Positions 5,272-38,101 of a stretch of DNA of 42,792 bases are shown here, in pieces. Where the stretch lies: IMG/VR virus record IMGVR_UViG_3300017658_000257, positions 1 through 42,792 of that record. The stretch is one strand, 5' to 3'. Numbering within the stretch: position 1 is the stretch's first letter; the number at the start of each line of letters is the position of its first letter. The position numbers and the translations under genes are program-made. This DNA comes from a virus (lineage: Duplodnaviria; Caudoviricetes). The notes under the pieces were generated by a model. That model was not told where the DNA came from. It did no database searches and saw nothing but the letters and a program-made list of their open reading frames with translations.

Positions 5272-5347
5272 GACTATCTCCTTTCATGGATGATGGACGG
5301 CGCGCCGCCGTGGCGAACCGGGTAGAATTCGAACGGGAATGATCAGT

Positions 5348-5824
5348 TCAGCCGCGATGCCAGTATTCGAACGGCACCGTCATCGAGACGCGGAACCACG
5401 CGCCGTTGTTGGCCCACTCGATATCGCTTTCGGATTTGACCGGTCCGCCTTCGTCGACACGCGGCGCCCAGGTGCGGACGTAGCAGCCGTCGCCGTTGTT
5501 GTAGAATACCTTCGCACGGAAGATTTCGCCGATGGTGTTGGCGTATTCCGTCGCGGTCGCGTCTCCGTCGCCACTCGGAACAAAGACATGGACGATGATC
5601 AGGCCGTCGGTCACCCACACCTGCGAGCCGGGCTTGCCTGCGCCATGCATCTGGCTGTCCGACGAGGCGATCTCCAGATGCGCCCAGGGCACGAGGATAT
5701 TGTTGCCGTCCCGTGGCGGCCATGGGGCGACCGGCGGTTTATTCTGATAGGTGATGCGCGTCGTTGTCCAGTTGGCGGCAAGCCGCTCGGCGATCGCTTC
5801 CTTCGCCCCTGCATAGGTGCCCAT
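5348..5824 (-). CDS. Tail terminator-like protein
   Basis: Motifs GLIIVHVFVPSGDG and WFRVSMTVPFEY; immediately upstream of the tail tube. Confidence 0.75.
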   Translation of the reverse strand: MGTYAGAKEAIAERLAANWTTTRITYQNKPPVAPWPPRDGNNILVPWAHLEIASSDSQMHGAGKPGSQVWVTDGLIIVHVFVPSGDGDATATEYANTIGEIFRAKVFYNNGDGCYVRTWAPRVDEGGPVKSESDIEWANNGAWFRVSMTVPFEYWHRG

Positions 5825-6525: not shown

Positions 6526-6814
6526 CGGCCAATCTCTTTTCCATCAGCGCCTTATGCACTCCCGAGACGGAGCGGAGCGCGTCGATGGCCGGGACGCCGA
6601 CGTAGTGGACGTAACGGCGACCGTCGAAGAAAGGATGGAAGCCGCCAGCGGAGCCGACAAAACTCTTTATTTCGCCAAGGATGGGCAACAAAGGCTTGGC
6701 ATCCAAGGCAAGCGAAAGCGTCTCCATCGCCGGAGCGGCTGCGGCTTCCTTGAGCGCTGCAGGGGCCGCCGCCACGGATGCGGCAGCTGCTCCGAAGAAT
6801 GATCGACGATTCAT
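6515..6814 (-). CDS. Hypothetical protein with twin-arginine-like N-terminus
   Basis: Translationally coupled to neighbours; MNRRSFFGAAAA. Confidence 0.6.
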   Translation of the reverse strand: MNRRSFFGAAAASVAAAPAALKEAAAAPAMETLSLALDAKPLLPILGEIKSFVGSAGGFHPFFDGRRYVHYVGVPAIDALRSVSGVHKALMEKRLADGS

Positions 6815-17485: not shown

Positions 17486-18012
17486 CGCCCTGCCCTCCGC
17501 CATGCCTCGAACTCGCCGCGCAGCGCCTTCCAGCGCTCCGCCGCCTGCCCGCCGTCTTTGAGTTCCGCTCGCGAGGTGACGCCGAGCAGGCCGCGCACCT
17601 TCTGCACCACGCGCTCGACCGTCAGTGGCCGTTCCAGCCCGTGTTTCGCCTCCAGGAAGGCGCGGAAGGCCGGTTCCTCGCATTTCATCGCGCACTCGGC
17701 GGCATAGTCCTTCGGCGCGTCCTGCCGCTGCGGCTCATGCCGCTCGGGCGGTTTCAGCCGGGCAATCGCCCTATCGACGAGGCCGAGCAGGAACTGCACG
17801 TTCTCCGGCGCATCTACCACGAAGGCGATTTCCGCCTCGCTGGCGCCGGCATCGAAGCGCAGCACCGGCGACAACTCGCCCAGCGGCCCCAGCGCCTCGA
17901 CGAAGCAGCCGGCATCGACCGGGTTGCCGTCATGGACGCGCGACCAGGAAGCCGGCGCGATGGCGTGCAGCTGATCGCGGACGCGGGCGAGACGGGCGGA
18001 TTCCGAGATCAT
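17482..18012 (-). CDS. Hypothetical phage protein
   Basis: MISESARLARVRD... ATGA-coupled to the methyltransferase stop; C-terminal GVTSRAEL motif. Confidence 0.7.
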   Translation of the reverse strand: MISESARLARVRDQLHAIAPASWSRVHDGNPVDAGCFVEALGPLGELSPVLRFDAGASEAEIAFVVDAPENVQFLLGLVDRAIARLKPPERHEPQRQDAPKDYAAECAMKCEEPAFRAFLEAKHGLERPLTVERVVQKVRGLLGVTSRAELKDGGQAAERWKALRGEFEAWRRAGR

Positions 18013-20186: not shown

Positions 20187-20482
20187 CGTCCCCCCTTCGG
20201 CATCCGGCCATGCCTGCGCATGACCTCGCCAAGATTTGCCGCCGCCTTGACCAGCCGGCCATGAGCGGTCGCCTCCGGCGCGCCGCTGAAGCGCGCCGAA
20301 ACGAACTGGTCGTATGCGCGTGCGACCGCTCGGCCGGCCTCGTTGATCTCGCGATCAATCTCGTCCTGCTCGGCTTTTCGCTCGGCGGCGGCATGCTGGC
20401 GGATTTCCTCCAACAGCAGTTCGCGTACGAGCGGCGTCAGCGCACGGGTGAGACCGTCGATCTTGCCGGACAGCGCCGTCAT
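20183..20482 (-). CDS. Hypothetical protein
   Basis: ATGA-coupled in the early operon. Confidence 0.65.
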   Translation of the reverse strand: MTALSGKIDGLTRALTPLVRELLLEEIRQHAAAERKAEQDEIDREINEAGRAVARAYDQFVSARFSGAPEATAHGRLVKAAANLGEVMRRHGRMPKGGR

Positions 20483-20772
20483 GATGCCCCCTCCCCGTTG
20501 GCGAAGGCCGCGAAAGCCGTTCGGTAGCTGTCGAAATCGTCTGCCAGCACGGCGGGAATCCGGCCCTGCCTGTCGCGCGTGGCGCGCATCAGTGTCACCC
20601 GGCGCAGCACGTATTCGGCCCCGGCATGGAAGCCGGCGCGCTGGCAGGCATCGCCGATGGTGCCGGCGAACTTCAAAAGCAGGGAATCCGGCATGACGAG
20701 CAGCAGGCGCGCTCGCGCCTGGTCGCCGTCTGCATCGTGCAACTGCCGGATGATGGGGATCATGGCGTCCAT
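20479..20772 (-). CDS. Hypothetical protein
   Basis: Coupled ORF in the operon. Confidence 0.65.
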   Translation of the reverse strand: MDAMIPIIRQLHDADGDQARARLLLVMPDSLLLKFAGTIGDACQRAGFHAGAEYVLRRVTLMRATRDRQGRIPAVLADDFDSYRTAFAAFANGEGAS

Positions 20773-21200
20773 CAGGAACCTACTGTTTCAGTGGTGGTCA
20801 CGTGAAACACACGTGCGCGGCGCGCCGTCGGGCGCGGGCGTTTGCGCGGTTTCGGTGCATTGAGGGGCGGAAGGTAGAAGGCGTCGGGATCGAGCCCGGC
20901 CCAGCCGCAGATCGCCCGGACCTTCGGATAGGCAAGCTGCTGCGAGGCCATCACGCGCGAGAGGTCGGACGAAGTGACGCCCATCTCTTCGGCGAGCGCG
21001 CGCCAACCCCGACCGTCATATTCCAGCATCGGCCGCAAGCGACGCGCCAGCGCCCGCATGTCGAAGTCGGCGAGATGACCGGCCCGTGGCCGCTGCTCCC
21101 GCCGCGCCAGTTCCTCGGCGCGATCGTCCATGGCCATGCGCTTTTCCAGCGCCCTACGCAGGCGGGCCATGGCGCGCAGGATGGAGGGATCGGACGTCAT
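20772..21200 (-). CDS. HTH-containing protein
   Basis: WRALAEEMGVTSSDLSRVMA is XRE-like; ATGA coupling. Confidence 0.65.
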   Translation of the reverse strand: MTSDPSILRAMARLRRALEKRMAMDDRAEELARREQRPRAGHLADFDMRALARRLRPMLEYDGRGWRALAEEMGVTSSDLSRVMASQQLAYPKVRAICGWAGLDPDAFYLPPLNAPKPRKRPRPTARRARVFHVTTTETVGS

Positions 21201-23827
21201 TCCGCCGCCTCCATCGTGTCGTTCAGTCCCATGAGGCCGAACATCGAAGGCACAGCGATCTTCCGCTCAGCCGCCTGGCAGTAGCGCAGGCCGTCGGCGA
21301 AATAGGTTTCCGACAGTTCGGACGCCTGCCCGCGGCGCCCTTTGAGGATCGCGCGGTACGGAACCGTCATCAGGCCACCGAACGGATCGTAGATGATGTC
21401 GCCGCGGCTTGAATATCGGTCGATCAACCTATCGACGATATCGAACTGAAGCGGGCAGACATGCTTTTCGAGGTTCTTCTGCGCCTGCTCGCCGTTCAAT
21501 GTCCGCATGCGAACCACGTCGTGCCATACGTCCGGATCGCCGGACGCGGCGTCGAGCAGCATGAATGTTTTCGGCAGCGCCTTCTTCGCCGCAAGCTCCT
21601 CGGCCAGCTTTAGGTGCTGCTCGAAATCGTAGATTTTTGCCTCGCAGAGCTCATGAAACAGCTTACGCACGGCCTGAGGGCCGAGCTGAATGATCTCGTC
21701 AAGCGTCAGCAGCCTGTCGCCCGAAGAAAGCCAGAAAGCGTGCGCGTCAAGCTGCCAGCGCGCCAGCGTATAGCCGCTGCCAGGAACCTGCGGTCGGCGA
21801 TCGCCGTCGCTCCAGCGCACGAGGTCGCCGTCTTCGGCATAGACAAGCGGCTTGTCGTGGATCACCGGCCGGTCGGCATAGCCTCTGGATTGATCGCTCT
21901 GCGGTTTGCGGAACAGCAGGATGTATTCCGGACAGCCGACGCCCATCTTCGTGGCGTCCTTCATCATCTCGGAATAGGACAGACGATAGGTCTGGTTGTT
22001 CTCGCGCACGACGTCGGTGACGACGGTGATCATGCCGAAATACTGAAACCCGTGCTTCAGGTAGTGCATGATCCCTTCGGCATGAAAGGGCGAGACGGTC
22101 GGCACGCCCTCGCCCGTCACGTTGCCGAACAGGATCCTGTCCTTGACGTGGATACAGGCGAGCCGGCCGGGTTCGAGAATGCGCAGCAGCTCCGGCGTCA
22201 GGAAATCCATCTGACGCCAGAAGTGGCCGTTGTCGTCGGTGTGGCCGAAGTCGTTGTAGCTGGCCGTATACTCGTAATGGTTTGAGAACGGAATCGAGGT
22301 GACGATCTGGCCGATGCTGTTGGGAGCGGTTCGCCGCGCCTCCTCGACGGCATCGTTGTTGGCGATGATGAAGTTCTCGCCCCGCTCCTCTCGGCGGATG
22401 ATGCCGATGGAGCGCTGCAGCACATCGTCAACCGGCAGGCCGTCCAATCCGTACCTGCGGATGATCTCGGCCATGCGGGCCATCATCCGGTCATGCTCGG
22501 CCCATTTTCCTTCGAGGTTGCGGCGCACCTCGCGCTCGGCCTCGGAATAGATGATGTCGATGCGACAGGCCTGCTTCTGTCCGAAGCGGACGATGCGGTG
22601 ATAGGCCTGGATGAAGTCATGGAACTTGAAGCCGATGCCGACGAAGATCGCCCAATGGCAATGCTTCTGGAAATTGCAGCCGGCACCGGACATTTCCGGT
22701 TTGGTGGCGAGGTCGCGAAAACGCCCCTCCTTGAAGCCGATGGCGTTTCGCTCATTGGTGTCCAAGTCCTGCGAGCCGTAGATGGAGCGGACGCCCGGCA
22801 CCGCCGTCTCGATGGCGCGACGCTCATCCTCGAGGTCGTGCCATAGGATCCTGTGTGCCTCTGGATCGGATGCGATCAGGTCCTGCATCATGGCGATGCG
22901 CGCCGGCAGGCTGTCGCGCTTGGCGGCCGACGCCTGGCCGACGCCGAGCGCGGCGTTACGCAGCAACAGGCCCTGCCCGTCGCGGTCGACGCCGGCGGCG
23001 GAATGATCGGTCGGCACCTCGTGCCACGTCACCGTCACCGGCGGCAGCACATAGCCCGTATCGTCGAAACCGAGATCGGCCGGGCTTTGCAGGAAGACGG
23101 CCCATGAATGGACCCACAGCCAGAATTCGTCTTCCTTGTGCGGAAAGAGCGTCAGTTCGCCGGCCTTTTCCGAATTGCGCTGGAAGAACCGCGTCAGCGC
23201 CTGGCCTGTGTCCATCACGCCGAGGAAGCCGGCATAGTGGATGAGTTCCTTGGTGCGGTTCGGCGACGGCGTCGCGGTGGCGACGAACTTGAACTCGACA
23301 TCATGGAACAGCGGCAGGAACGTCTGGAAGGTTTTCGTGCCGTAGCCGCGCAGCACGGCCGCCTCGTCGAGCGAGACGGCGCGGAAGCGCGAGACGGTGA
23401 TCTTGCCCTCGCGCACGCTCTCGTAGTTGGTGACGTAGACGACGTCGCCGTCTCGCTCCGGATCGATCTGGCTGTCGCGCTGGACGAATTTCAGGCGGAC
23501 CGCGAACGATCCGGTAAACCATTCTTCGGCATCGGCGAAGAATTCCTGCCGCACGCCGAGCGGGATGACGATCAGGCGCAGTCCCGGCCGGTGGACACCG
23601 ATCAGACGCATGATCTCCAGTTGCATTGCGGTCTTGTGTAGGCCGAAGGATGCGAAGATGGCGCGCTGTCCGCCGCGCAGCGCCCACGGCACGATCGCGC
23701 GGCAGTGCGGCGCCAGCGCCGGATTGATCTCGACGGCGTCGACCTGGAAGCCGCCCGTCTCGGCAACGCGCATCTTGGCCGACAGGAAATCGCGATAGGT
23801 GTCGCTATGGACAAGCGGCGCATTCAT
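21197..23827 (-). CDS. SF2/SNF2-like helicase domain fused to an N4/N6 DNA methyltransferase
   Basis: N-half FGLHKT, LDEA, TATPSPN, RIVRFGQ; C-half TSIPF, HVCPLQ, YDPFGGLMT (beta-class order). Confidence 0.88.
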   Translation of the reverse strand: MNAPLVHSDTYRDFLSAKMRVAETGGFQVDAVEINPALAPHCRAIVPWALRGGQRAIFASFGLHKTAMQLEIMRLIGVHRPGLRLIVIPLGVRQEFFADAEEWFTGSFAVRLKFVQRDSQIDPERDGDVVYVTNYESVREGKITVSRFRAVSLDEAAVLRGYGTKTFQTFLPLFHDVEFKFVATATPSPNRTKELIHYAGFLGVMDTGQALTRFFQRNSEKAGELTLFPHKEDEFWLWVHSWAVFLQSPADLGFDDTGYVLPPVTVTWHEVPTDHSAAGVDRDGQGLLLRNAALGVGQASAAKRDSLPARIAMMQDLIASDPEAHRILWHDLEDERRAIETAVPGVRSIYGSQDLDTNERNAIGFKEGRFRDLATKPEMSGAGCNFQKHCHWAIFVGIGFKFHDFIQAYHRIVRFGQKQACRIDIIYSEAEREVRRNLEGKWAEHDRMMARMAEIIRRYGLDGLPVDDVLQRSIGIIRREERGENFIIANNDAVEEARRTAPNSIGQIVTSIPFSNHYEYTASYNDFGHTDDNGHFWRQMDFLTPELLRILEPGRLACIHVKDRILFGNVTGEGVPTVSPFHAEGIMHYLKHGFQYFGMITVVTDVVRENNQTYRLSYSEMMKDATKMGVGCPEYILLFRKPQSDQSRGYADRPVIHDKPLVYAEDGDLVRWSDGDRRPQVPGSGYTLARWQLDAHAFWLSSGDRLLTLDEIIQLGPQAVRKLFHELCEAKIYDFEQHLKLAEELAAKKALPKTFMLLDAASGDPDVWHDVVRMRTLNGEQAQKNLEKHVCPLQFDIVDRLIDRYSSRGDIIYDPFGGLMTVPYRAILKGRRGQASELSETYFADGLRYCQAAERKIAVPSMFGLMGLNDTMEAAE

Positions 23828-25113
23828 GCCGGCACCGCCTCGGGCGCTTCCAGCCCCCATGCATCCCAGCCCGGCCGCGCGCGGCGGGCATTCAGTTCAA
23901 CCTTTGGCGTGTTCGGCCAATTGGCGTCGATCCATGCCAGGAAGTCTTCCGGCTTGGTCGAATGATCGGTGGCGTCGGCGGCGTGCGCGATGCCGTCGAA
24001 ATCGCTCTTGAGCTGCGCCCCTTGAGCGGGTGCGACGGGATTGCCGCGCGTCGCGACCAGCAGCAGCTCGTGCTTGCCGCGGTTCCAGTAGCCGCCGGCC
24101 ATCTTCTGCTTGATCCAGCAGAAATTCGTCACGTATCGGGCGTGCGCCTTGTTCGGCGAGAGGAAACCTGTGGAGGCGTCGCGCTCGATCCATGCAAAGC
24201 CCCATGCGTCGAGAACGCAGATGGCTTCGATGAGCATCGGAGCCGTCGCCCAAAGGAACAGCACGCAGTCCTTTGCGGCGAGCGCGCCGATGTCGCGCCG
24301 CATGATGGTCAGCAGGTCGGAGGTCGGATAATGGTTGTCAGCCGCCCGGTCCATGCCGGTCTCGGCGGAATAGGGCTCGAACCGCCATTCAGGATCGGCG
24401 ACAATGACGCCGTATTTCTTCTCCGGCAGCGCAACCTGGCGTGCGCCGAGCTCGACTTCGCGGGCCTGCCGGCGCTCTTTCTTAATCGCCTGCTCGTCGG
24501 CACGGATGGATTTGATCGCCGGCTGGATGGCGCGCTTCAGCGCCGCGCGCGTCGGCTCGTCGCCTTCGGCGAGCAGCTGGTCGAGCGCCTCGCGCACGAT
24601 TCCGGGCCGCGCAGCTATGGCGTCGCGCAACTGCCGCGATTCATGGATGTCCTTCCGGTCGAGGCCGATATCGGCAGCAGTTGCTGGGCGTTCTCCTGTG
24701 GAACGCCCACGGCTGCCGTCCTTCGCGGTCGCGAGTTCCCCCCGCTCCTGCGCGGCGTCGTATTCGTCGGCAAGCCGGCGCTTGGCAGCCGCCTCGATTT
24801 CCAGTGCATCCGCCTGGGCACGATGCGTGGCCGCGACCACGTCGTCATGTGCGCGCTTCGCCTTCTGGATGCGTGCCGCGCGTTTGGCGGCGTCGTAGGC
24901 CAGCCCCGCCTTGTCGCGCGCATCCAGCACCGCCGCTGCCGTCGTGGCACCGGCAAGAGCACGGGCTGCGCTGGAGATCATCGCAGGCAGGCTCGAGGCC
25001 GGCGACGCATTCACGTCGCCGGCCACCGCGCTTTCATCGGACATGCGTGCGGCGGGCATGCTTCCACCGGGAGTTCGTTTACCGGCCGATTCTTGTGCGC
25101 AAACGCCGGACAT
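23824..25113 (-). CDS. MT-A70-family methyltransferase with N-terminal helical extension
   Basis: YGVIVADPEW, DCVLFLWAT, HELLLVATRG, HSTKP, ELNAR..RPGWDAWG; start uncertain. Confidence 0.85.
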   Translation of the reverse strand: MSGVCAQESAGKRTPGGSMPAARMSDESAVAGDVNASPASSLPAMISSAARALAGATTAAAVLDARDKAGLAYDAAKRAARIQKAKRAHDDVVAATHRAQADALEIEAAAKRRLADEYDAAQERGELATAKDGSRGRSTGERPATAADIGLDRKDIHESRQLRDAIAARPGIVREALDQLLAEGDEPTRAALKRAIQPAIKSIRADEQAIKKERRQAREVELGARQVALPEKKYGVIVADPEWRFEPYSAETGMDRAADNHYPTSDLLTIMRRDIGALAAKDCVLFLWATAPMLIEAICVLDAWGFAWIERDASTGFLSPNKAHARYVTNFCWIKQKMAGGYWNRGKHELLLVATRGNPVAPAQGAQLKSDFDGIAHAADATDHSTKPEDFLAWIDANWPNTPKVELNARRARPGWDAWGLEAPEAVPA

Positions 25114-28481: not shown

Positions 28482-29252
28482 TCATGGTCCGCCACCTCGA
28501 AAACGGTTCGCAGCGCGCCGCGCGAAGTCCGGCAGTTCCGCCAGGTCGACCTCGTGCGCGTCGCGCATGATCAGGGAATGGATGCCGATGGCCTCGGCGG
28601 CGCCCGCGATCAGCAGCGCCAGGACATCGCCGGCCGGCTTGCCCTCATGGGCGGCGACCAGCGACAGGATGAAGGCCGAAGCCTCGGAAAGGGTGATGAC
28701 GGACGCTGCTCCACCAGAGGCTTCAACATCCCGTCCGTCATCTTCGCCAGTGAAGCCGGGCAGCGCGGACCGCTGGCGATCAGCCGCATCGTCGCCCCTA
28801 CTCACCTCTCCCGCCGTCGGGGCGCCTGTCGCGGCGCCGGTCCGACCGTTGTCCTCGGAGGTTTTCGCTCGGGATTGAATGACCGCACCGGCCTGGGCGG
28901 GGGGCTTGGGTTGATCGGCCGGTGCGGTCTCTCGCGCAGCGCTCCCAACGCCGCCCGCGCGAAGACTGGTTGCAGGAGCCGGACTCGCACCGGCGGTCTC
29001 CTGGGTATGAACCAGGCGAGATGCTGCTTCTCCATCCTGCAGGAAAGGGACATCCGCGCCGGATGCGTGCGGGAGAACATCCGGCGCGGTCTCGAGCGCG
29101 GCCCCGGCAACAAGGGACGTGCGGGAGATGACTGCCGCGCCGGACGCGTGACCGGTCGGCGCGGCTTCGCGGTCAGGCGCTTGGGCAGCCGTCGCGAAAC
29201 ATGGACGCGGCACGAGCCGCTTGTGGAAGGAAGACGGCGCGAGGCTGTTCAT
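28482..29252 (-). CDS. Hypothetical low-complexity protein
   Basis: ATGA-coupled to cro; Ala/Pro-rich. Confidence 0.5.
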   Translation of the reverse strand: MNSLAPSSFHKRLVPRPCFATAAQAPDREAAPTGHASGAAVISRTSLVAGAALETAPDVLPHASGADVPFLQDGEAASRLVHTQETAGASPAPATSLRAGGVGSAARETAPADQPKPPAQAGAVIQSRAKTSEDNGRTGAATGAPTAGEVSRGDDAADRQRSALPGFTGEDDGRDVEASGGAASVITLSEASAFILSLVAAHEGKPAGDVLALLIAGAAEAIGIHSLIMRDAHEVDLAELPDFARRAANRFRGGGP

Positions 29253-29455
29253 TCGGCTGCCTCACTCGGACGATTTTGATTGCGCTCGGCGATGAAGGCC
29301 CTGACACGCTCCGCCGTAACTAGCGTGACGGTCTTCCCCTTCTCAAGCCGGTCGACAAGCTCCGAATTCCCGCAAGACGCCTTACCGAAATACGTCGGAC
29401 CCATGCCCGACGCAGCAAGGAACTCACGGATGTCTGAAAGCAAATCGCTAGCCAT
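29249..29455 (-). CDS. Cro-like repressor
   Basis: MASDLLSDIREFLAASGMGPTYFGKASCGNSELVDRLEKGK; divergent from the XRE repressor. Confidence 0.85.
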   Translation of the reverse strand: MASDLLSDIREFLAASGMGPTYFGKASCGNSELVDRLEKGKTVTLVTAERVRAFIAERNQNRPSEAAE

Positions 29456-29462
29456 GCGGCGC

Positions 29463-29535
29463 AACGTATCCTCTAAAGCGGATATGTCAAGCATCCTCTA
29501 TGAAGGACGTGCGCCAGTATCCGAAATAGCGGATA
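29463..29535. promoter_or_regulatory. OR-like region: three 18-bp operators and a PR-like promoter
   Basis: TATCCTCTAAAGCGGATA (29467-84), CATCCTCTATGAAGGACG (29492-509), TATCCGAAATAGCGGATA (29518-35); minus-strand TTGACA (29490-85) and TACGTT (29468-63). Confidence 0.8.
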
Positions 29536-29543
29536 TTCCGGCC

Positions 29544-29867
29544 ATGAAAGATGAAGGTTGGAAGAAGCGTCTGGCTGACGGAATCGAGGCCAAAGGCCTG
29601 TCGCAGCGCGAAGTGTCACTCGCTGCCGGCAAAGGCCCAGGCTACGTCAATTCGCTCTTGAACGAAGGGAAAGACCCTACCATTAACAATCTTCTGGTTG
29701 TCTGCAAAGCTGCCGGTCTCAGCCTGTATTCCGTCCTTTATGGGATCGAGATGAGTCGCGAGACGGAGGAGATTGTTCGGAAGCTTGAGACGTCATCAGA
29801 AGCGAAGCGGCGCGGCCTCCTCCAAATCCTTCAGGATGAAGATGGCGCCGAAGGGCCCTCTGTTTAG
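29544..29867 (+). CDS. CI-like XRE repressor without peptidase domain
   Basis: MKDEGWKKRLADGIEAKGLSQREVSLAAGKGPGYVNSLLNEGKDPT; 107 aa; divergent from cro. Confidence 0.88.
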   Translation: MKDEGWKKRLADGIEAKGLSQREVSLAAGKGPGYVNSLLNEGKDPTINNLLVVCKAAGLSLYSVLYGIEMSRETEEIVRKLETSSEAKRRGLLQILQDEDGAEGPSV

Positions 29868-29916
29868 CAGCAGGTCCAAGGCGCGACATAAGCGCAAGAA
29901 ATTCCGATACTCGCAT
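29719..29916 (-). CDS. Possible small antisense ORF overlapping the repressor 3' end
   Basis: GGGAGGG RBS before ATG 29916; MRVSEFLALMSRLGPAAKQRALRRHL. Confidence 0.35.
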   Translation of the reverse strand: MRVSEFLALMSRLGPAAKQRALRRHLHPEGFGGGRAASLLMTSQASEQSPPSRDSSRSHKGRNTG

Positions 29917-29973
29917 AAAACCCTCCCAGCCGGCCGCTGTTGCAACCGGCAAAACCAAACTCCTAAATATGAA

Positions 29974-30256
29974 ACGCATCCCCCGATGCGACTAGTGAGT
30001 ATTTCAATGCTTGTTTCAGCTGCGGCACTGCTCTGGCGCCAAGCCGGGGGTTAGCAATCCGTCACGAGTACGGACCGATGGTTTTTAGCCTGAGCCTGGA
30101 CATGACACATCGCCCCCGGCCGAAAGCCAGGTTTGATGCGCGACGCCAGTCGCCGCATCGGTTCAGCACTTTGGGTAGCGCCTACTCGTGATCCGGGTTG
30201 CTAAGCCCACCCGAAAATGGACTGGTTTACACTCACTGGCAATCGATGAGGGGCGT
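29974..30256 (+). ncRNA. Candidate rod-like structured RNA
   Basis: Nested inverted repeats; 30047-30070 pairs with 30183-30208 at 23 of 24 positions; G-U wobbles fit the plus strand. Confidence 0.4.
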
Positions 30257-30293
30257 CACCGCTAATCATCCGTAAAGCGACCGTCGTTCCGGA

Positions 30294-30345
30294 TATCCTT
30301 TTTAGCGGATATCTGTCTTGACATATCCTCTATTGCGGATATTTT
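30294..30345 (+). promoter_or_regulatory. OL-like region: two operators and a PL-like promoter
   Basis: TATCCTTTTTAGCGGATA (30294-311), TTGACA (30318-23), TATCCTCTATTGCGGATA (30324-41), TATTTT (30340-45). Confidence 0.8.
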
Positions 30346-30379
30346 CACATCCATCGCAATCACGCGGTGGAGCAAGCCT

Positions 30380-30958
30380 GTGGCCGAGAGCCCCGACAAC
30401 GATCACTACCCGGCCACGAAGATCGACGACATGCTCGTCGTCACGATCCGGATCAGGGTCGCGGCCGTTCCGACTTTCCATAAACGGGAAGCGAATGGAG
30501 GGGGGTACACCCTCGACAATATGCTGGCTCGCGAAGTGTGCGAGCAGGAAATGGAAATCAACCTCGGCGCCGATGAAGACCTGATCGACGTTCTCGGCGA
30601 GATGATGGAAGCCACACAAGCGGAACGGCTGTACGGGTGGATGGCACAGTTCCGCGCCGGCCTTGCACTGGATGCTGATGAGATCGCTCCGGAAAGCGAG
30701 GCCCACCTTTACCCGTCGCCTGATCTATCGGCTATTTCTTCCGCGCAGCAAGCAGCGAGCCGAGCCGATCGCGGGAATCCCCGGCGAGCCGGAGGAGATC
30801 TTCGGCAAGGCCGAGCGCCTGATGGGGGAGCATCGTCAGCCAAAGTTCGTGATGTGGCCCGAAAAGCAGATCGCCGTCTGTCACGTAGTCCAGCCGAACT
30901 TGAGGCAACCCCTCAGGCGAAAGCTCGCAGCGGTAAGACGCAAGCTGGGGGCGCGTGA
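30380..30958 (+). CDS. First gene of the PL-like operon, hypothetical
   Basis: GTG with GGAG upstream; the acidic N-terminal half looks coding; the C-terminal part overlaps an antisense gene. Confidence 0.5.
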   Translation: MAESPDNDHYPATKIDDMLVVTIRIRVAAVPTFHKREANGGGYTLDNMLAREVCEQEMEINLGADEDLIDVLGEMMEATQAERLYGWMAQFRAGLALDADEIAPESEAHLYPSPDLSAISSAQQAASRADRGNPRRAGGDLRQGRAPDGGASSAKVRDVARKADRRLSRSPAELEATPQAKARSGKTQAGGA

Positions 30959-30983
30959 TGGTTGTCTTTGCTTTCTTCGCCAT
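30732..30983 (-). CDS. Hypothetical protein (antisense moron)
   Basis: GAGGG RBS; MAKKAKTTITRPQL... Confidence 0.6.
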   Translation of the reverse strand: MAKKAKTTITRPQLASYRCELSPEGLPQVRLDYVTDGDLLFGPHHELWLTMLPHQALGLAEDLLRLAGDSRDRLGSLLAARKK

Positions 30984-31010
30984 TGGAAATCCCTCGGATC
31001 GTGCGCGCCG

Positions 31011-31292
31011 TCAATCCCGCCCGAGCGCGTTGAGGCGTTCGGCCGCTGCACGGATCGGCGACATCCGATCCTCGGAATGCTCATCCAAAGCAACCATCCG
31101 CTGCTCGATGCGCAGCAGCGAGTCGATGGCCGCGCCCGCCTGGCGGGACAATTCCCCAATGGCGAAAGTCAACGCGCCGCCGATCAGAAACATGAAGCTC
31201 GCAAGCTCTTGCGTGATCGTCGGTGCCGCCGCCAGTCCCATTGCCCCGAAAAGCATCTCGATGGCACCGGCAGCGAAAAACAATACGAACAT
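31011..31292 (-). CDS. Two-TM membrane protein (antisense moron)
   Basis: GGGGAGGG RBS; MFVLFFAAGAIEMLFGAMGLA...FMFLIGGALTFAIG. Confidence 0.65.
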   Translation of the reverse strand: MFVLFFAAGAIEMLFGAMGLAAAPTITQELASFMFLIGGALTFAIGELSRQAGAAIDSLLRIEQRMVALDEHSEDRMSPIRAAAERLNALGRD

Positions 31293-31371
31293 GGTGAGCC
31301 CTCCCCTTTGCCATCTTGGCACATTCATTCGGGTGCGCAAGTCGCGCACCTTCGGCATCTGAGGCGCGACT

Positions 31372-31677
31372 ATGCTGACCGCAGCAATCCACCTCACCTT
31401 CTCCGATCCCGGCGATTTCGTCGCCGAGAGCCGGGCTGTCGCCGCTCTTGAGGATTGCGGCTTCTCTGTCGGTCGCATGCAGGCCCACGCTCCGCGTGGA
31501 ATCCTGTTCGGCGTCTATGACATCCAGAAGTGGAAGAATCTGAACGGCGAGCATCGCCGGGCACTGCATGGCGTGATGAACGGCGACTATCGCAATGGGC
31601 CGGTCACCGTCGAGATATTCGACAGCGCGCCCGAGAGGGGCGTCGCTGCGCTTCGTAAATGGGAGGCGCTGTCGTGA
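31372..31677 (+). CDS. Hypothetical phage protein
   Basis: GAGG RBS; GFSVGRMQAHAPRGIL...IQKWKNL...GDYRNGPV. Confidence 0.7.
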   Translation: MLTAAIHLTFSDPGDFVAESRAVAALEDCGFSVGRMQAHAPRGILFGVYDIQKWKNLNGEHRRALHGVMNGDYRNGPVTVEIFDSAPERGVAALRKWEALS

Positions 31678-31685
31678 GCCTTGGG

Positions 31686-32222
31686 TCAGCCCGCCTTTCC
31701 TGGCAGCTCGCAGAGTTTCCGATAGGTGTATCCCTCGAAGGACACCCAGTTCTGCAAGAGCCGATGCAGCAACGGGATATGCAGGCGTTCCTGCTGATCC
31801 ATTTCCATGGCCCCTATTGCGTCGTTGTAGGCCTTTGCGTCGACGGCGCGCATGACCGGCGGCTCATCCCCGGCGATGCGGACCATGCGGCTATACCATG
31901 CGGCGCACTGATCCGCCGTGGGCTCGGTGACCTCCTCGATATCCGCCAGCAAATTGTAGTAGTCGCGCTGGAGCGTTCGGTGTTCACGAGCCGAGCCGGC
32001 GGGGTCGAACACCAATTGTATCGCGCCGAGGAGAGCAGCGAACGCCCCTGCAAGAAACTGCGGCCAACCGAGGTAGCCGAGAACACCGCCCATTGCCGAG
32101 GCGCCGGCGACAATCACTCCGAAGTTGAGCCAACGCGTCCGACGCTCGAACTTGAGACGTTGGGCGGTGTGATAGAGCGCATTGCGCAGAACGTTGAAGC
32201 GGATGTTCTCGGTGGCGCTCAT
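31686..32222 (-). CDS. SLATT-like two-TM effector protein
   Basis: ALYH helix, two TM segments, then AREHRTLQRDYYNL; AAAGGA RBS. Confidence 0.6.
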   Translation of the reverse strand: MSATENIRFNVLRNALYHTAQRLKFERRTRWLNFGVIVAGASAMGGVLGYLGWPQFLAGAFAALLGAIQLVFDPAGSAREHRTLQRDYYNLLADIEEVTEPTADQCAAWYSRMVRIAGDEPPVMRAVDAKAYNDAIGAMEMDQQERLHIPLLHRLLQNWVSFEGYTYRKLCELPGKAG

Positions 32223-32224
32223 CT

Positions 32225-32359
32225 TTATTTTCCTTTCTGCGGCGGCGGTGGTGGAGGCGGCGCCGGCTGCCTTGGACCGATGCTCCCTTCCTTGTCTCCG
32301 GAGGTGCGGGGCTGCCTGATCCCTAGCGATCTTTCCTCGTACTCGTATTCGTTCGACAT
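32225..32359 (-). CDS. 44-aa Pro-rich peptide
   Basis: AGAGGAG RBS; MSNEYEYEERSLGIRQPRTSGDKEGSIGPRQPAPPPPPPPQKGK; ends 2 nt before the SLATT-like start. Confidence 0.6.
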   Translation of the reverse strand: MSNEYEYEERSLGIRQPRTSGDKEGSIGPRQPAPPPPPPPQKGK

Positions 32360-32399
32360 GATATTCATCTCCTCTTGTCTTTGCCTTGAGGGGTTGACA

Positions 32400-32433
32400 G
32401 GGGCCGGGTCGCGTTGCTGCGCGACTCGGCTCC
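32400..32433. promoter_or_regulatory. 14-bp imperfect stem-loop between divergent genes
   Basis: GGGGCCGGGTCGCG-TTGCTG-CGCGACTCGGCTCC. Confidence 0.4.
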
Positions 32434-32530
32434 GCTCATCAGTGCACGGCGCGTTGATTCGTGAACGGCGAAATCGACCTGCGCTTCGCGCCGGCGGCGG
32501 TTTTACCCGCGATCCACAGGCCGGGAGCGC

Positions 32531-32878
32531 ATGATGGCCTCCCGCAAGCGCTTCACCCGCAAGGACCGCGAGCGCATCCTCGATGCGAATGACCATCGCT
32601 GTCATATCTGCAAGGGCAGGATCGCGGACGATCAGGCATGGGAGATCGAGCACGTCATTCCGTGGAAGCTGACGCGCGACGATGGCGACAACAACCTTCG
32701 CCCAGCCCACAAGAAATGCCACTCGCGCAAGACGCACAAGTTCGACCGCCCCGCGATCAGCAAGGCCGAGCGCATGCGCGCCAAGCATCGCGGCTGCTGG
32801 CCGAGGCCGGCCGGCAACGCCCGTCTCGGCTCCCGCCCTTTCCAGTCAACCCGGTTCATCTCGCATCCGCGCCGCTAA
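32531..32878 (+). CDS. HNH endonuclease (early region)
   Basis: CHIC...WEIEHVIP...NLRPAHKKCH. Confidence 0.85.
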   Translation: MMASRKRFTRKDRERILDANDHRCHICKGRIADDQAWEIEHVIPWKLTRDDGDNNLRPAHKKCHSRKTHKFDRPAISKAERMRAKHRGCWPRPAGNARLGSRPFQSTRFISHPRR

Positions 32879-32913
32879 ACGAGCGCCACGCATCAACCCG
32901 AAAGGAGATTTCA

Positions 32914-33801
32914 ATGGCAACCGCCCCTTCCTCCGCCTCCACCATCCAGCGTTCCGATCCCGGCGCATCGATCTTCGCCGTTACCGGCGCTTCCTCTGTC
33001 GCCATTCGCGCCGGCACCACCATCGGCGCCGTCGACTTCATGGAAGACACGCCGCTTGCCCTCCCCGAACTGACGGCCGGTACGGACTATGCCGTGCGCC
33101 TCGTCGACGGCTCGCCCGTCATCGGGAATTGCTCGGACGGCGTGCCGACGGATGCCGTCGGCGGTTTCCATTTCGCACCGGGCGGCAATGCCGCCGCGGC
33201 GGCCGGGGGCGACACCGTTGCAGCCATCAATCCCTTTTCCTGCTGGGATGCAGGTTTCCGGCCGGCCTGCCCCGATCCGCGCGGCATGGCGCTGATCGAC
33301 CGCCACGGCGCGCGCTTCTGGTGCGATATCTATCTGCTCGGCGTCGATCATCTGACGGCAGGCACGTCGCGCTTTGGCCAGACGATCGCCGACGGGAAGT
33401 CGCTGCCGCAGGCGACGGACGGCAAGGGGCGGACCAAAAAGCTCGACTATGCCGCCGCCGCCTCGATCTACGCCCACCACGGCAAGCGGTTGCTGACCGT
33501 CGAGGAATTCTTCGCGGCAGCCTACGGCGTGAGCGAGCGCACCGCCGCCGACAACGATCCGGACAGGACCGGGCTCGATGCGCCGCGCACCAGCCGCTTC
33601 GGCCTGATGCAGGCGACCGGAAACATGTGGGTGTGGGGCAACGACGGCCACCCCGACATCCCGCGTGCCTCCATCTTCGGCGGCAGCTGGTGGGACGGCG
33701 GCAACGCCGGTTCCCGCTACGCGAGCCTGGACGGCTGGGCCGGGAACTCGCTCGGGGGCATCTCGGCGCGCGGGGCCTGCGACCACCTGAGCCCTGCATA
33801 G
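32914..33801 (+). CDS. DGR target protein 1, Mtd-like C-type lectin fold
   Basis: AAAGGAG RBS; Mtd-like motifs LTAGTDYA, GGFHFAPG, FRPACPDPRGM, HGKRL, C-terminal ARGACDHL; carries VR1. Confidence 0.93.
   Translation: MATAPSSASTIQRSDPGASIFAVTGASSVAIRAGTTIGAVDFMEDTPLALPELTAGTDYAVRLVDGSPVIGNCSDGVPTDAVGGFHFAPGGNAAAAAGGDTVAAINPFSCWDAGFRPACPDPRGMALIDRHGARFWCDIYLLGVDHLTAGTSRFGQTIADGKSLPQATDGKGRTKKLDYAAAASIYAHHGKRLLTVEEFFAAAYGVSERTAADNDPDRTGLDAPRTSRFGLMQATGNMWVWGNDGHPDIPRASIFGGSWWDGGNAGSRYASLDGWAGNSLGGISARGACDHLSPA
33658..33783 (+). repeat. DGR variable repeat VR1
   Basis: 126-bp ungapped match to TR with 11 mismatches, all at TR adenines (9 A>G, 1 A>C, 1 A>T). Confidence 0.97.
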
Positions 33802-33820
33802 CCTGCGCGAAAGCGCAGGC
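33764..33820 (+). promoter_or_regulatory. G/C element, IMH and GAAA hairpin of target 1
   Basis: 14-nt G/C run CGGCGCGCGGGGCC, TGCGACCACCTGAGCCCTG, hairpin GCCTGCGC-GAAA-GCGCAGGC (33801-33820). Confidence 0.88.
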
Positions 33821-33881
33821 GCCTCCCCCTCTCCCATAAACAGACCGCGCCGGATCGGCGCCCGCAGGACAGGAGTCCGAC

Positions 33882-33968
33882 ATGGAGACATTCAAGGATA
33901 TTCTCGCCGGTTTGGCGATGACGGCCTTCATGCTGTCCGCCGTCATCTGGCTGGGTGTGCTCGCATGA
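33882..33968 (+). CDS. 28-aa hydrophobic peptide
   Basis: AGGAG RBS; METFKDILAGLAMTAFMLSAVIWLGVLA; ATGA-coupled to the next ORF; below the ORF-track cutoff. Confidence 0.65.
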   Translation: METFKDILAGLAMTAFMLSAVIWLGVLA

Positions 33969-34219
33969 TCGCCCAGCGCAACCCGCAGCCCTACGGCGCC
34001 GAGCTGATCGACGGCCTCGACCCCGTCTATGGCGACGTCACGATCCCGCCCGGCAACCGCACGGTGCGCGTCTGCGCCGGCTGGCCCGAATGCAATTGCG
34101 ACGGCGATTGCGAAACCATCGTGCTCGGGCCGACGCCGGCCGAGCGCCGCGTCCTGTTCGTCCTCCTCATCGTCGTGGCGGCAGTCGGATGCGGCCTCAT
34201 CTGGATTGGGCTGCGGTGA
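33965..34219 (+). CDS. Small Cys-rich protein with C-terminal TM anchor
   Basis: CAGWPECNCDGDC, then VLFVLLIVVAAVGCGLIWIGL. Confidence 0.65.
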   Translation: MIAQRNPQPYGAELIDGLDPVYGDVTIPPGNRTVRVCAGWPECNCDGDCETIVLGPTPAERRVLFVLLIVVAAVGCGLIWIGLR

Positions 34220-34509
34220 TGGCCTCCGACCGAGACATCATTCGCGCCATCGCTGAACTGCTCGACCAGGAGCTGTTCGGCATCAGCATGCTGATCGCCG
34301 ATACCGTCTGCTATGGCGGCCGTCTCGAAGAAGAAAAACGGCACGAGCGCAGCCTTGAGAAAATCAAGGCTCTCATCCCTGCCAGCCTGCAAGCCGAATT
34401 CGAATTGGACAGGCGACGCGCCAAGGCCGCGTCCCTTCGCGCGCAAGCCGATGCGCTGCTGGCGGTCGACGCCGCCGCATCTCCCCAACAGATGAAAGGG
34501 TCCGGCTGA
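34219..34509 (+). CDS. Hypothetical protein
   Basis: MASDRDIIRAIAELLD...; TGATG coupling at both ends. Confidence 0.65.
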   Translation: MASDRDIIRAIAELLDQELFGISMLIADTVCYGGRLEEEKRHERSLEKIKALIPASLQAEFELDRRRAKAASLRAQADALLAVDAAASPQQMKGSG

Positions 34510-34730
34510 TGTCGACTTTCCACCACTACCGCCGTGCCGTCGACTCAATCGGCGCCCTGCAGGTCGCAATCGAGGAAGCCGACCGGGAACTGGCCGATCT
34601 GGACCGCGAGATTTCCCGACTGTCGGCGCGGCGTGAAGACGTACTGCGCGAACGCGCGGCCCTGACCGCAGGCGCAGCCAACATCGGCCAGCGTGTCGGC
34701 CTCATGTCCTTCCGCCAGGCGGCGGAATAG
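34509..34730 (+). CDS. Small coiled-coil protein
   Basis: Heptad pattern LQVAIEEADRELADLDREISRL. Confidence 0.65.
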   Translation: MSTFHHYRRAVDSIGALQVAIEEADRELADLDREISRLSARREDVLRERAALTAGAANIGQRVGLMSFRQAAE

Positions 34731-34760
34731 CTCCCCACAATCTCAAAACGGAGAACCAGC

Positions 34761-35651
34761 ATGGATATCGCCACACAAGCCCGCTGCCTGACGAGCGACC
34801 GCGCGTCGCCGGGCAAATGCATCTTCGCCGCAGTCGGCCGCGAGACGCTCAGCGTCCGCGCCGGCGCGACCATCGGCGACGTCGCCTTCCGCGAGGATAC
34901 CCCGGTCGCCCTGCCCGCCCTGGTGGCCGGCTGCGATTACTACATCGGCCTCGACGGCGCGAACCTTGTGGCGATCGCGGCGGACGGCTTGCCCGGCAAC
35001 GGCATCGTCGGCGGCTTCCACTACGCACCCGGCGGCAACGCTCCGGCGCGCGCAGGCGGCGACGCCGTGCCGGCCATCAATCCCCTTTCCTGCTGGGGTG
35101 CGGGCTTCCGCCCTGCCTGTCCCGATCCGCGCGGGATGACCTTCGTCGACCATGACGGCCTGCTCTTCTGGTGCGACATCTACAAGCTCGGCATCGACCA
35201 TCTCGACCAGGGCACCAGCCGCCACGGCGTCGTCATCGCCGACGGCAGCGATCTGCCGCAGGCTGTTTCCGGCAAGGGCCGGACCAAAAAGCTTGATTAC
35301 GCCACGGCCGTCGAGATCTACGCGCATCACGGCAAGCGGCTGCTTTCATACGACGAGTTCCGCGTCGCCGCTTTCGGCGTCATGGAAAAGACCGCCGTTT
35401 CGCGCGATCCGGTCAGGACCGGACTGGACGCGGAACGGACTTCCCGTTTCGGCTTGATGCAGGCCACCGGCAATCTCTGGGACTGGGGCACCGACGGCGA
35501 TCCCGATCGCCCGCGTGCCTCCCTCTTCGGCGGCTGCTGGTGGCGCGGCGGCGACGCCGGTTCCCGCTGCGCGGGCCTGGGCGCCTGGGCCGTGTTCTCG
35601 TACGAGAGCTTCTCGGCGCGCGGGGCCTGCGACCACCTGAGCCCTGCATAG
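34761..35651 (+). CDS. DGR target protein 2, Mtd-like C-type lectin fold
   Basis: GGAG RBS; paralog of target 1 (GGFHYAPG, FRPACPDPRGM, HGKRL, ARGACDHL); carries VR2. Confidence 0.93.
   Translation: MDIATQARCLTSDRASPGKCIFAAVGRETLSVRAGATIGDVAFREDTPVALPALVAGCDYYIGLDGANLVAIAADGLPGNGIVGGFHYAPGGNAPARAGGDAVPAINPLSCWGAGFRPACPDPRGMTFVDHDGLLFWCDIYKLGIDHLDQGTSRHGVVIADGSDLPQAVSGKGRTKKLDYATAVEIYAHHGKRLLSYDEFRVAAFGVMEKTAVSRDPVRTGLDAERTSRFGLMQATGNLWDWGTDGDPDRPRASLFGGCWWRGGDAGSRCAGLGAWAVFSYESFSARGACDHLSPA
35510..35633 (+). repeat. DGR variable repeat VR2
   Basis: 124-bp ungapped match to TR 36072-36195 with 18 mismatches, all at TR adenines. Confidence 0.97.
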
Positions 35652-35670
35652 CCTGCGCGAAAGCGCAGGC
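35614..35670 (+). promoter_or_regulatory. G/C element, IMH and GAAA hairpin of target 2
   Basis: Identical to the target 1 cassette; hairpin at 35651-35670. Confidence 0.88.
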
Positions 35671-35686
35671 GTGACCGACGGCCGAC

Positions 35687-36058
35687 GTGACCATCATCCG
35701 CGACGAGAACAGCGCCAGCAAGGGTCTGGCGATCATCGACAGGTACGAAGAAACCGTGACCTATCTCTATCCGATCCTGCAACGCTGCCCGCGCGCGCAC
35801 CGCAACGTGCGCGACGCGATGATGGCGGTGCTGTTCGATCAGGTCGGCCTCTTCTACCAGGCGGCGAAGTCGCGTCAGCCTTCACGCCTTTACGCAGCCG
35901 ACGCCAACCTGGCGACGCTGCGTTTCTGGTTGCGCTTCGCGGTCAATCCCAGGCTCAGGATCATCACGCCGCATCAGCATCGCATTGCGCTCGGCCATCT
36001 GGCCGAGGTCGGCGCGATGCTTGGCCAATGGATCAAGACCGCGAGGGGCAACGGATGA
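35687..36058 (+). CDS. avd: DGR accessory variability determinant
   Basis: 123 aa; YLYPI, SRLYAADANLATLRFWLRF, TPHQ, AEVGAMLGQWI align with BPP-1 Avd motifs; GTG start uncertain. Confidence 0.93.
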   Translation: MTIIRDENSASKGLAIIDRYEETVTYLYPILQRCPRAHRNVRDAMMAVLFDQVGLFYQAAKSRQPSRLYAADANLATLRFWLRFAVNPRLRIITPHQHRIALGHLAEVGAMLGQWIKTARGNG

Positions 36059-36069
36059 TCGGGGAAACG

Positions 36070-36195
36070 ATCCCGCGTGCCTCCATCTTCGGCGGCAGCT
36101 GGTGGAACGGCGACAACGCCGGTTCCCGCTACGCGAACCTGGACAACTGGGCCGAGAACTCGAACGAGAACATCTCGGCGCGCGGGGCCTGCGAC
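36070..36195 (+). ncRNA. DGR template repeat (TR), followed by IMH* and a spacer to 36435
   Basis: Seven AAC codons in VR frame; between avd and RT; diverges from the VRs after TGCGAC (GATCCCTTACC versus CACCTGAGCCC); no GAAA hairpin. Confidence 0.96.
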
Positions 36196-36435
36196 GATCC
36201 CTTACCAGCTCGGCGTCGGTCACGGCCGCGCCGGCTCTCCGCTTGCTGCGCCGTGCCCTACGCGAGGCGCAGGGGTGGTCGGCCTGATCATCCGGCTTCG
36301 GCGAAGACACTTCAAGGTCCGGCAGAGCGGGGAGTAGCGGGCACCGCCCGTCGAAACCCGCGGTCGGCAAATGGCCGCGTCGCCGGTGAGCGATCCAGTG
36401 CGAAGCTCACGGACGTGGCTCGGAAGGAGGCCGGC

Positions 36436-37422
36436 ATGGGCAAGAAACACCGCAACTTGATCGACCGCATCACCGCCGATGCGAACATGATGGAGGCCTT
36501 TCGTCTCACTTCGCGCGGCAAGCGTCTGTCTCCCGCTAGGCTGGAGTTCAAGGAATTCTCCGCTCTCAACCTCGAACGCCTCGCCGCGGCGATGAGAGAC
36601 GGCAGTTATGTCCAGGGCGAGCCGGCGGAATTCACCATCTACGATCCGAAACTGCGCGTCATCTCGGCTCTCCCGTTCCGCGACCGCATCGTCCAGCACG
36701 CCGTGTTCCGGATCCTCGGGCCAATCTTCGACGCCGGCCTGCTGCCGCGGTGCTTTGCGTGCCGGCCGGGCTTCGGGACGCACAGGGCGGCAGTCACGCT
36801 TCAGGCCGATCTGAGGCGCCTGACCAAAGACGGCGCGCCGGTCTATGCGCTGAAGACCGATTTCTCCCGGTACTTCGCCTCGATCGACAGGGCGGTGCTG
36901 TGGCGGCTCGTCGAGGCGAAGGTTTCCTGCCGCGCCACGTTGCGCCTTATCGAGGCGATGCTGCCCCGCCAGGGCATCGGCCTGCAGATCGGCAGCCTGC
37001 TCAGCCAGATATTCGCCAACGTCTACGGCGGCATCCTCGACCGGCACCTGCAACAGGACCTCGGCGAGCGGTACTGGTATCGCTATATGGACGACCTGGT
37101 CGTTCTCGGCGGATCGAGCGCGCATCTGCGCGCCGTGAAGACCGACATCGAGGCGCTGTCGCGCGAGCGGCTCAGGCTCCGCTTTTCCAAATGGTCGATC
37201 CAGCCTGTCGGACGCGGCGTGAACTTCGTGGGCTACCGCATCTGGCCCACGCACAAGCTGCTGCGCCGTTCGAGCGTCACCCGTGCCCGCCGCAAGATCG
37301 CCCGCTATCGCGCTGCCGGCGACTTCGACCGGCTGGAAAGGTTCCTTGCCGCATGGACGGGCCACGCCCGATGGGCCGACACGCGCAACCTCCTCAAAAG
37401 CCTCGGAGTCGACAATGGCTGA
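36436..37422 (+). CDS. brt: DGR reverse transcriptase (328 aa)
   Basis: AAGGAGG RBS; MGKKHRNLI, FRDRIVQHA, LKTDFSRYFASI, IGSLLSQ (DGR SQ motif), YMDD, NFVGYRIWPTHKLLR. Confidence 0.96.
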   Translation: MGKKHRNLIDRITADANMMEAFRLTSRGKRLSPARLEFKEFSALNLERLAAAMRDGSYVQGEPAEFTIYDPKLRVISALPFRDRIVQHAVFRILGPIFDAGLLPRCFACRPGFGTHRAAVTLQADLRRLTKDGAPVYALKTDFSRYFASIDRAVLWRLVEAKVSCRATLRLIEAMLPRQGIGLQIGSLLSQIFANVYGGILDRHLQQDLGERYWYRYMDDLVVLGGSSAHLRAVKTDIEALSRERLRLRFSKWSIQPVGRGVNFVGYRIWPTHKLLRRSSVTRARRKIARYRAAGDFDRLERFLAAWTGHARWADTRNLLKSLGVDNG

Positions 37423-38101
37423 TCTCCCCATCCTGTTCTCTGCCAGCATGGTCCGCGCCATCCTGCGGGAGATCGAGAAGCCCGGCACCGGCAAGACGCA
37501 GACGCGGCGGGTGCTTGACGCGTGGTGCGACGAGCCGCCCGCATTCGTCGATGACGGCGTCATCACCGCCTATGATGAGAACGACAGTCCCTATCGGTGG
37601 CCAAACACGAAGGCCGTCGGCGACCGCCTCTATGTGCGCGAGGCGTGGCGGACGGAAAGCCGCGCCTATGACGATCTGTCGCCGTCCGCCATGGGCGGCG
37701 AGGAAACAATACTTTTCGAAGCTGACGCAGACTGGAAGCTGAACAAGTCTGTCGGCCGCCTTCGTCAGGGCATGCACATGCCGCGCTGGGCCAGCCGCAT
37801 CACTTTGACCGTGACCGACGTGCGCGTGCAGCGGTTGCAGGCGATCAACGATGCGGACGCCATCGCAGAAGGCCTGGAGCACGATATGGACGGCGACGTC
37901 GATGGCGTCGGCCGCCACATTGTCATCGAAAGCTGGCGCGCCGCAGATTTTCTGCCTTGGAACCGCGATCCGATCGAAGCCTACGCCGACCTGTGGGACC
38001 AGTTGAACAGTGCGCGCGGTTACGGCTGGGACGCGAACCCCTGGGTCGCCGCCTATACCTTCCGGCCGATCTTCGCCAACATCGATCAGGTGCAGCCATG
38101 A
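37415..38101 (+). CDS. Conserved phage early protein (ASCH/PUA-like)
   Basis: PILFSASMVRAIL, KTQTRR, GDRLYVREAW, HMPRWASRITL, WDANPWV. Confidence 0.8.
   Translation: MADLPILFSASMVRAILREIEKPGTGKTQTRRVLDAWCDEPPAFVDDGVITAYDENDSPYRWPNTKAVGDRLYVREAWRTESRAYDDLSPSAMGGEETILFEADADWKLNKSVGRLRQGMHMPRWASRITLTVTDVRVQRLQAINDADAIAEGLEHDMDGDVDGVGRHIVIESWRAADFLPWNRDPIEAYADLWDQLNSARGYGWDANPWVAAYTFRPIFANIDQVQP

Follow-up and report, generated by a model that had tools for sequence, protein, structure and literature searches.

Shortened Mtd-like targets of a phage diversity-generating retroelement lie outside the late operon and may have a non-virion role

Introduction

Does a diversity-generating retroelement (DGR) whose targets lie far from the tail genes still serve to change host range? 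The question is raised by a caudoviricete genome, IMG/VR record IMGVR_UViG_3300017658_000257, which we analyzed over its entire 42,792 bases (the window) and which carries a DGR with two targets resembling the major tropism determinant (Mtd) of phage BPP-1. Phage DGRs with Mtd-like targets are usually read as host-range switches. An earlier note, made from the sequence of the window, proposed that these targets may be early-expressed, non-tail proteins and form the best candidate for an undescribed system in the window.

Here, we report that a remodelled clade of such targets keeps this placement across relatives. The conserved early placement, its independence of the tail and the remodelling of the targets beyond the loss of the N-terminal prism support a non-virion role. 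We consider it quite possible, at slightly under an even chance, that the targets are early-made, soluble intracellular binders of a fast-changing host protein and not tail-tip receptors. According to this proposal, the DGR template has rewritten the binding sites of two shortened, early-arm Mtd-like proteins that would be repressed in the lysogen and made early in infection or induction. These proteins would be soluble and cytoplasmic and would bind a fast-changing host protein, which, judged from gene position only, may be a defence protein or a takeover target; the cassette would descend from a tail-fibre DGR put to a new use.

An intact BPP-1-type cassette with two targets

The window holds a complete BPP-1-type DGR in the order target 1, three small genes, target 2, avd, template repeat (TR) and reverse transcriptase (RT). 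Its features, including the variable repeats (VRs) and the initiation of mutagenic homing elements (IMH, and IMH* at the TR), are as follows:

32914..33801, plus strand: target 1, 295 aa, Mtd beta-sandwich and CLec domains, no beta-prism, short beta2-beta3 loop
33658..33783, plus strand: VR1, 11 of 11 mismatches with the TR at adenines
33801..33820, plus strand: GC-rich 8-bp stem capped by a GAAA loop, downstream of the target 1 IMH, identified in the sequence
33965..34730, plus strand: three small genes between the targets, no significant family match
34761..35651, plus strand: target 2, 296 aa, a paralogue sharing 64% identity with target 1 when the VR is excluded
35510..35633, plus strand: VR2, 18 of 18 mismatches with the TR at adenines
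35651..35670, plus strand: stem-loop identical to that of target 1, after the target 2 IMH, identified in the sequence
35687..36058, plus strand: Avd accessory protein (NF033474 above cut-off; PF22296)
36070..36195, plus strand: TR, rich in AAC, with an IMH* distinct from the IMH after it
36436..37422, plus strand: DGR reverse transcriptase, 328 aa, YMDD intact (PF00078, phrog_1423)

A DGR-type RT that clusters with BPP-1-type RTs, adenine-only differences between TR and VRs, Avd, an IMH/IMH* pair and a stem-loop were all found; both targets share one IMH, and the end of the TR differs from it. The cassette is intact, and both VRs have been rewritten adenine-specifically. The two open reading frames (ORFs) agree with the earlier description of two plus-strand targets of about 295 aa. 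The contigs of one sample break at the VRs, for which the repeats can account.

The cassette resembles the BPP-1 DGR (mtd-avd-TR-brt; Mtd, PDB 1YU0-1YU4) in its target-avd-TR-RT order, adenine-specific C-terminal VR, GC-rich element with stem-loop, and beta-sandwich plus CLec fold. However, BPP-1 mtd directly follows a tail-fibre gene, whereas the two targets here lie in a putative early arm, 27 kb from the tail terminator and tube genes (4069-5824, minus strand). They are thus opposite to the tail genes and more than 25 kb from them, as had been claimed. They have also lost the prism and the beta2-beta3 loop of Mtd.

The targets have lost two parts of Mtd

According to the earlier note, similarity to Mtd begins only at the beta-sandwich, with about 50 residues missing. 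This was borne out by phmmer, which aligned residues 13-292 of target 1 to Mtd residues 59-378 (E 7e-55, about 40% identity), leaving about 46 N-terminal residues missing; Pfam mtd_2nd was found and Mtd_N was not. A GGAG site and the family alignment back the start at 32914. A 387-aa version of target 1 starting at the ATG at 32638 was rejected, as it overlaps the HNH gene and the family begins at the position of 32914. The monomer structure prediction suggested in the earlier note, made with AlphaFold2 (pLDDT 89), predicts a sandwich and CLec fold with a TM-score of 0.86-0.87 to Mtd.

By a hydrophobicity heuristic only, the targets contain no signal-peptide-like stretch, in agreement with what had been stated. 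Among 91 proteins of the target clade described below, there were no lipoboxes and no Tat motifs, and three had a hydrophobic stretch; 3-19 residues precede the sandwich, with no beta-prism or fibre-anchoring extension. A second loss, which the earlier note had not seen, concerns the beta2-beta3 loop, which has 13 residues here against 31 in Mtd. All 93 clade rows have a loop of 12-14 residues, and all 56 outgroup rows one of 28-55.

In Mtd, the beta2-beta3 loop braces the binding site of the neighbouring protomer (PMC2408619), the prism and sandwich promote an obligatory trimer (PMC6328139), and the step from micromolar to picomolar binding needs avidity (PMC2408619). As both the prism and the trimer-bracing loop are lost, a low valency of the targets is plausible. 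This bears on the idea that the targets are soluble lectin-like proteins freed at lysis, which mask receptors on debris or neighbouring cells. Such proteins would retain the ancestral ligand class, a cell-surface receptor, and would require neither anchor nor signal peptide, which also fits independence from tail type; yet they would be expected among late or lysis genes, and low valency would make their surface binding weak (PMC2408619). We regard this role as improbable.

A divergent clade with intact reading frames

The best 120 of 1,416 target homologues are 270-329 aa long, with Mesorhizobium, Bradyrhizobium, Afipia and Rhizomicrobium as sources of the close ones. In a tree of 149 dereplicated target rows, 93 short proteins were separated from 56 others (SH-aLRT 99, branch length 0.74); three of the 93 had been labelled 'long' because the script saw no strong ribosome site. 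The clade thus defined comprises proteins of about 300 aa from phages of Hyphomicrobiales-type hosts, and the cassette is present in cultured lysogens such as Mesorhizobium sp. B2-3-4 and Bradyrhizobium sp. YR681. Identity falls to 36-46% in longer homologues, save one likely frameshift artefact, and all six inspected have long fibre-like N-terminal extensions.

The RTs give a similar division: a branch with an SH-aLRT of 99 sets 38 clade RTs apart, under midpoint rooting they nest within virion-type DGR RTs, and their sister accompanies a 702-aa target fused to a fibre. It is likely that a tail-fibre DGR was redeployed just once. In a sample anchored on the RT, a clade target was present in 65 of 69 loci whose RT is at least 64% identical; of the other loci, three are truncated and one is collapsed.

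Across 55 distinct cassettes, that of the window included, 935 of 956 VR mismatches are at adenines; 29 loci have two targets, 23 one, one three and two none. Outside the VR, paralogue pairs are 45-74% identical, and for only 5 of 58 targets is its own paralogue the closest sequence; by this comparison, the pairs are old. In loci L001 and L005, the order of the paralogue lineages relative to avd appears swapped, and target 1 of the window groups with their avd-proximal targets. VR2 of the window has gained two cysteines, a residue rare at clade AAY codons (4 of 534), and this allele may be poorly functional or disulphide-forming.

These data also bear on whether the cassette is a mere hitchhiker, tolerated in a permissive accessory region without benefit to the phage. 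Its distribution is patchy (3 of 401 genomes in a sample of the order), the RT is absent from some loci and one locus has collapsed, all of which would suit such a module. However, frames are intact over 93 divergent rows (median identity 53%), the old paralogue pairs have been retained, and 54 of the 55 RTs keep an intact YMDD catalytic motif, which makes mere hitchhiking very improbable.

Three candidates were set aside. Locus L427, with a clade-type RT near a fibre gene, was rejected as a placement exception, being a collapsed target-RT remnant on the opposite strand. There (5366-6636), a truncated target is joined straight to a truncated RT, and avd and the TR are deleted. Two fusions were rejected as evidence for an intracellular role: in P0121 (ParB), the start backed by a ribosome-binding site is at the usual place and the junction is frameshift-like, and P0244, in which a helix-turn-helix (HTH) replaces half of the VR, is a singleton.

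Target placement is kept across relatives irrespective of tail type

The survey of relatives covered 18 of 42 searched records, namely 17 of the 18 that are at least 90% complete (one near-duplicate was omitted) and the closest relative; three of the 18 were read short of their end. Placement was settled by script in 14 and read by hand in G443, G424, G430 and G445. None of the 18 has its targets within the late operon, so the early placement held up beyond the window. They are opposite to the virion genes in eight records; in the other ten they share a strand with them and lie upstream of the terminase, and a NusG-like gene lies between targets and terminase in eight of the nine same-strand cases settled by script. 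The carriers have their own fibre genes, and their tails are contractile in seven, non-contractile in ten and untyped in one. Only the target, Avd and RT are common to 16 of 19 genomes, and no tail family occurs in more than six. No prism homologue was found among the relatives (best E 0.35). The script located the TR in 13 of the 18 records, and in these no remote VR was found outside the short targets.

The same picture was obtained from local neighbourhoods. Of 67 non-redundant clade loci, 59 have no late-gene match and none has a tail-gene match; the rest have a terminase 5.4-9.1 kb away (five) or small unannotated lysis-end genes (three). A metagenome sample yielded 50 clade loci, 32 of them new by sequence, and a late gene lies within 5 kb at one, a terminase at 4,965 bp. 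The early-arm placement is therefore kept across the clade, irrespective of tail type.

The record reads as a lambdoid genome with the cassette in its early arm

The minus strand of the window carries a non-contractile virion module that starts with the terminase and is truncated by base 1 within the tape-measure gene, together with NusG-like, replication, methyltransferase, cII-like and cro-like genes. The plus strand carries cI (HTH_3) and then the arm that holds the cassette, with an integrase at its end. A search for plasmid matches found none. The candidate control sites are as follows:

29467-29484 and 29518-29535: a pair of operator-like palindromes in the gap that separates the cro-like gene from the cI-like one, from a palindrome search
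30294..30345, plus strand: a pair of operator-like sites where the arm starts, one of them overlapped by a promoter-like site (TTGACA-16-TATTTT); presumed active

Perfect palindromes of the form TATCC-N8-GGATA, a pattern picked after inspection of the sequence, occur four times against 0.3 expected and flank cI and the head of the arm. One overlaps the promoter-like site at 30318-30345, the sole such site in 29200-37600 (1.6 expected by chance). The operator-bearing, PL-like promoter described in the earlier note is therefore present as a candidate, although antisense ORFs (31011-31292 and 31686-32362) separate it from the targets, which is a caveat on the early-arm reading. From the lambdoid layout, we infer that the plus arm is a pL-type early arm. 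HNH, DUF5131, DUF4031 and integrase genes, all named earlier as neighbours, were recovered by family matches, whereas the 'xis' gene had no family match and is positional only.

The antisense insert at 31686-32362 (minus strand) encodes a 178-aa protein with weak, below-cut-off SLATT matches and has a 45-aa proline-rich ORF upstream; its homologues lie near the cassette in L005, L043, L063, L065 and L068. Three methyltransferase-type genes, one fused to a helicase, occupy 18009-25113 (minus strand) in the replication arm, and similar genes flank many clade cassettes.

Such an accessory-region site in temperate phages, beside inserts such as the weakly SLATT-like gene, would suit targets that guard the lysogen or the infected cell by attaching to proteins of competing phages, whether as variable sensors or as exclusion factors, and CLec 'antigen sensor' DGR targets have been proposed in bacteria (PMC10907252). 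However, with operator-overlapped promoter-like DNA before it, the arm is likely silent in the lysogen; the targets have no effector domain and no conserved partner, and PADLOC gave no match for them. A guarding function seems to us rather unlikely.

Prism-less homologues in virion modules and the case for a virion protein

The outgroup provides a control for position. Virion genes neighbour 24 of 29 outgroup Mtd loci, and the other five have no annotated neighbour; as the outgroup sits beside virion genes, position does separate the clade. The prism-less outgroup proteins found in virion modules (L199, L210, L158, L194 and others) resemble the clade in having a 16-35-residue N-terminus before the sandwich, and some have Avd and RT. 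They differ in falling outside the clade, in having head, neck or fibre neighbours and in retaining the long beta2-beta3 loop. In L199, the DGR follows Mu-like head and neck genes; in L194, a tandem pair of prism-less homologues follows a fibre gene. Two Mu-like phages carry a non-clade, prism-less homologue with a loop of intermediate length and no RT (L440:7983-8921 and L441:49-960), after transposase, B and Gam genes in L440 and with a head morphogenesis gene downstream in L441. They are possibly a second shift towards early genes, but ambiguous.

The targets might still be receptor-binding or adhesion proteins of the virion, made early and persisting, whose beta-sandwich docks non-covalently on fibres, neck or capsid. 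The identity and TM-score to Mtd given above speak for this, as do the PHROG class of the target ('tail'; databases label the family 'tail' or 'major tropism determinant'), the prism-less outgroup members among virion genes, VR chemistry resembling that of tail-type DGRs, and surveys that regard Mtd homologues as tail proteins (PMC5758913, PMC8144416). Against it, clade targets were never found in a late operon, the cassette is common to unrelated tail types without a common docking gene, and the clade lacks the trimer-bracing loop that virion-module prism-less forms retain. Twelve records with a tail tube like that of the window yielded no Mtd homologue, a weak point, as most are fragments and only one is at least 90% complete. 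On balance, a virion role appears unlikely, though it deserves serious consideration.

Several observations count against early-made intracellular binders. Among outgroup loci with a 16-35-residue N-terminus, seven of eight lie among head, neck, tail or fibre genes; loss of the prism is therefore not by itself diagnostic of a non-virion role, and a prism-less Mtd homologue can probably dock on a virion. A few proteins outside the clade have short loops as well. VR residue spectra of the clade are much like those of tail-type DGRs and, tried as a clue to location, did not separate clade from outgroup. The dependence of Mtd on avidity is hard to square with a free binder of low valency. The flanks of the cassette contained no conserved partner gene, and no defence or anti-defence annotation bearing on the targets was found among the early neighbours. 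The placement counts are weakened by short flanks at many loci and by a late-gene query set of 390 proteins, which could miss unrelated tail genes. Finally, the record end interrupts the tape-measure gene, so the tail tip of this phage lies outside the record; an identical longer record (L471) begins at most 1 base from the start of the window, and the closest tail relative (L352) stops after a distal-tail-sized gene.

The non-tail role proposed in the earlier note thus fares unevenly: conserved, tail-independent early placement and a remodelled clade stand behind it, whereas the missing N-terminus, given the outgroup, fails as a sole argument.

Relation to described systems

Wu et al. 2018 (PMC5758913, Table S1 row 220) list a DGR of Bradyrhizobium sp. 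YR681 with an 894-bp 'Mtd homolog' in the order TG-AVD-TR-RT. A 297-aa YR681 protein is among our matches (P0104, 55% identity), so the YR681 target very likely belongs to the same clade. Unlike our reading, that study files the category with tail proteins. Its table gives no phage structural homologue within 20 kb, but the parts available contain no early-gene or non-virion reading of this target. Viral DGR targets are mostly tail proteins according to Roux 2021 (PMC8144416), and the tentaclin paper describes prism-less phage targets and assumes receptor binding.

The nearest precedent for a non-structural role is the second DGR target of Quimbyvirus, which Benler 2021 (PMC8008677) proposed to be non-structural and conflict-related, among methyltransferases. 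It is likewise a phage CLec target distant from, and opposite to, the structural module. However, Quimbyvirus is a Bacteroidetes phage whose remote second target exists besides one in the tail module and is not called an Mtd homologue, whereas here every target of the cassette sits in the early arm. The available parts of PMC11792537, PMC11661182 and PMC6199706 hold nothing on the clade. Among the titles and abstracts searched, which mostly did not cover subscription papers, none described where this clade sits among early genes, and members may be listed in the supplements of Roux 2021 and Benler 2018. 'Undescribed' has to be qualified, given the entry in Wu 2018 and the proposal of Benler 2021. 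The DGR itself is ordinary; the unusual part is the remodelled, early-arm, tail-independent target clade, with the function we propose for it.

Implications

The proposal that the targets act in the cell can be taken further. We suggest, tentatively, that a temperate-phage lineage turned a tropism switch into an intracellular antibody-like repertoire, in which an early, de-trimerised Mtd scaffold would be re-randomised against host immunity or takeover targets and the cassette would move between myophages and siphophages irrespective of their tails. Phage T4 encodes its internal proteins early, packages them and injects them as anti-restriction factors. With this precedent, finding the targets inside capsids would not alone restore the tropism reading.

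If the clade does act in the cell, the label 'tail' or 'major tropism determinant' would be wrong for many phages of Mesorhizobium- and Bradyrhizobium-type hosts, and programmed hypermutation would serve an intracellular step of the phage-host conflict. An Mtd scaffold this small, and possibly monomeric, may also be useful for binder evolution. As cultured lysogens carry the cassette, the question of non-structural phage DGR targets is directly testable.

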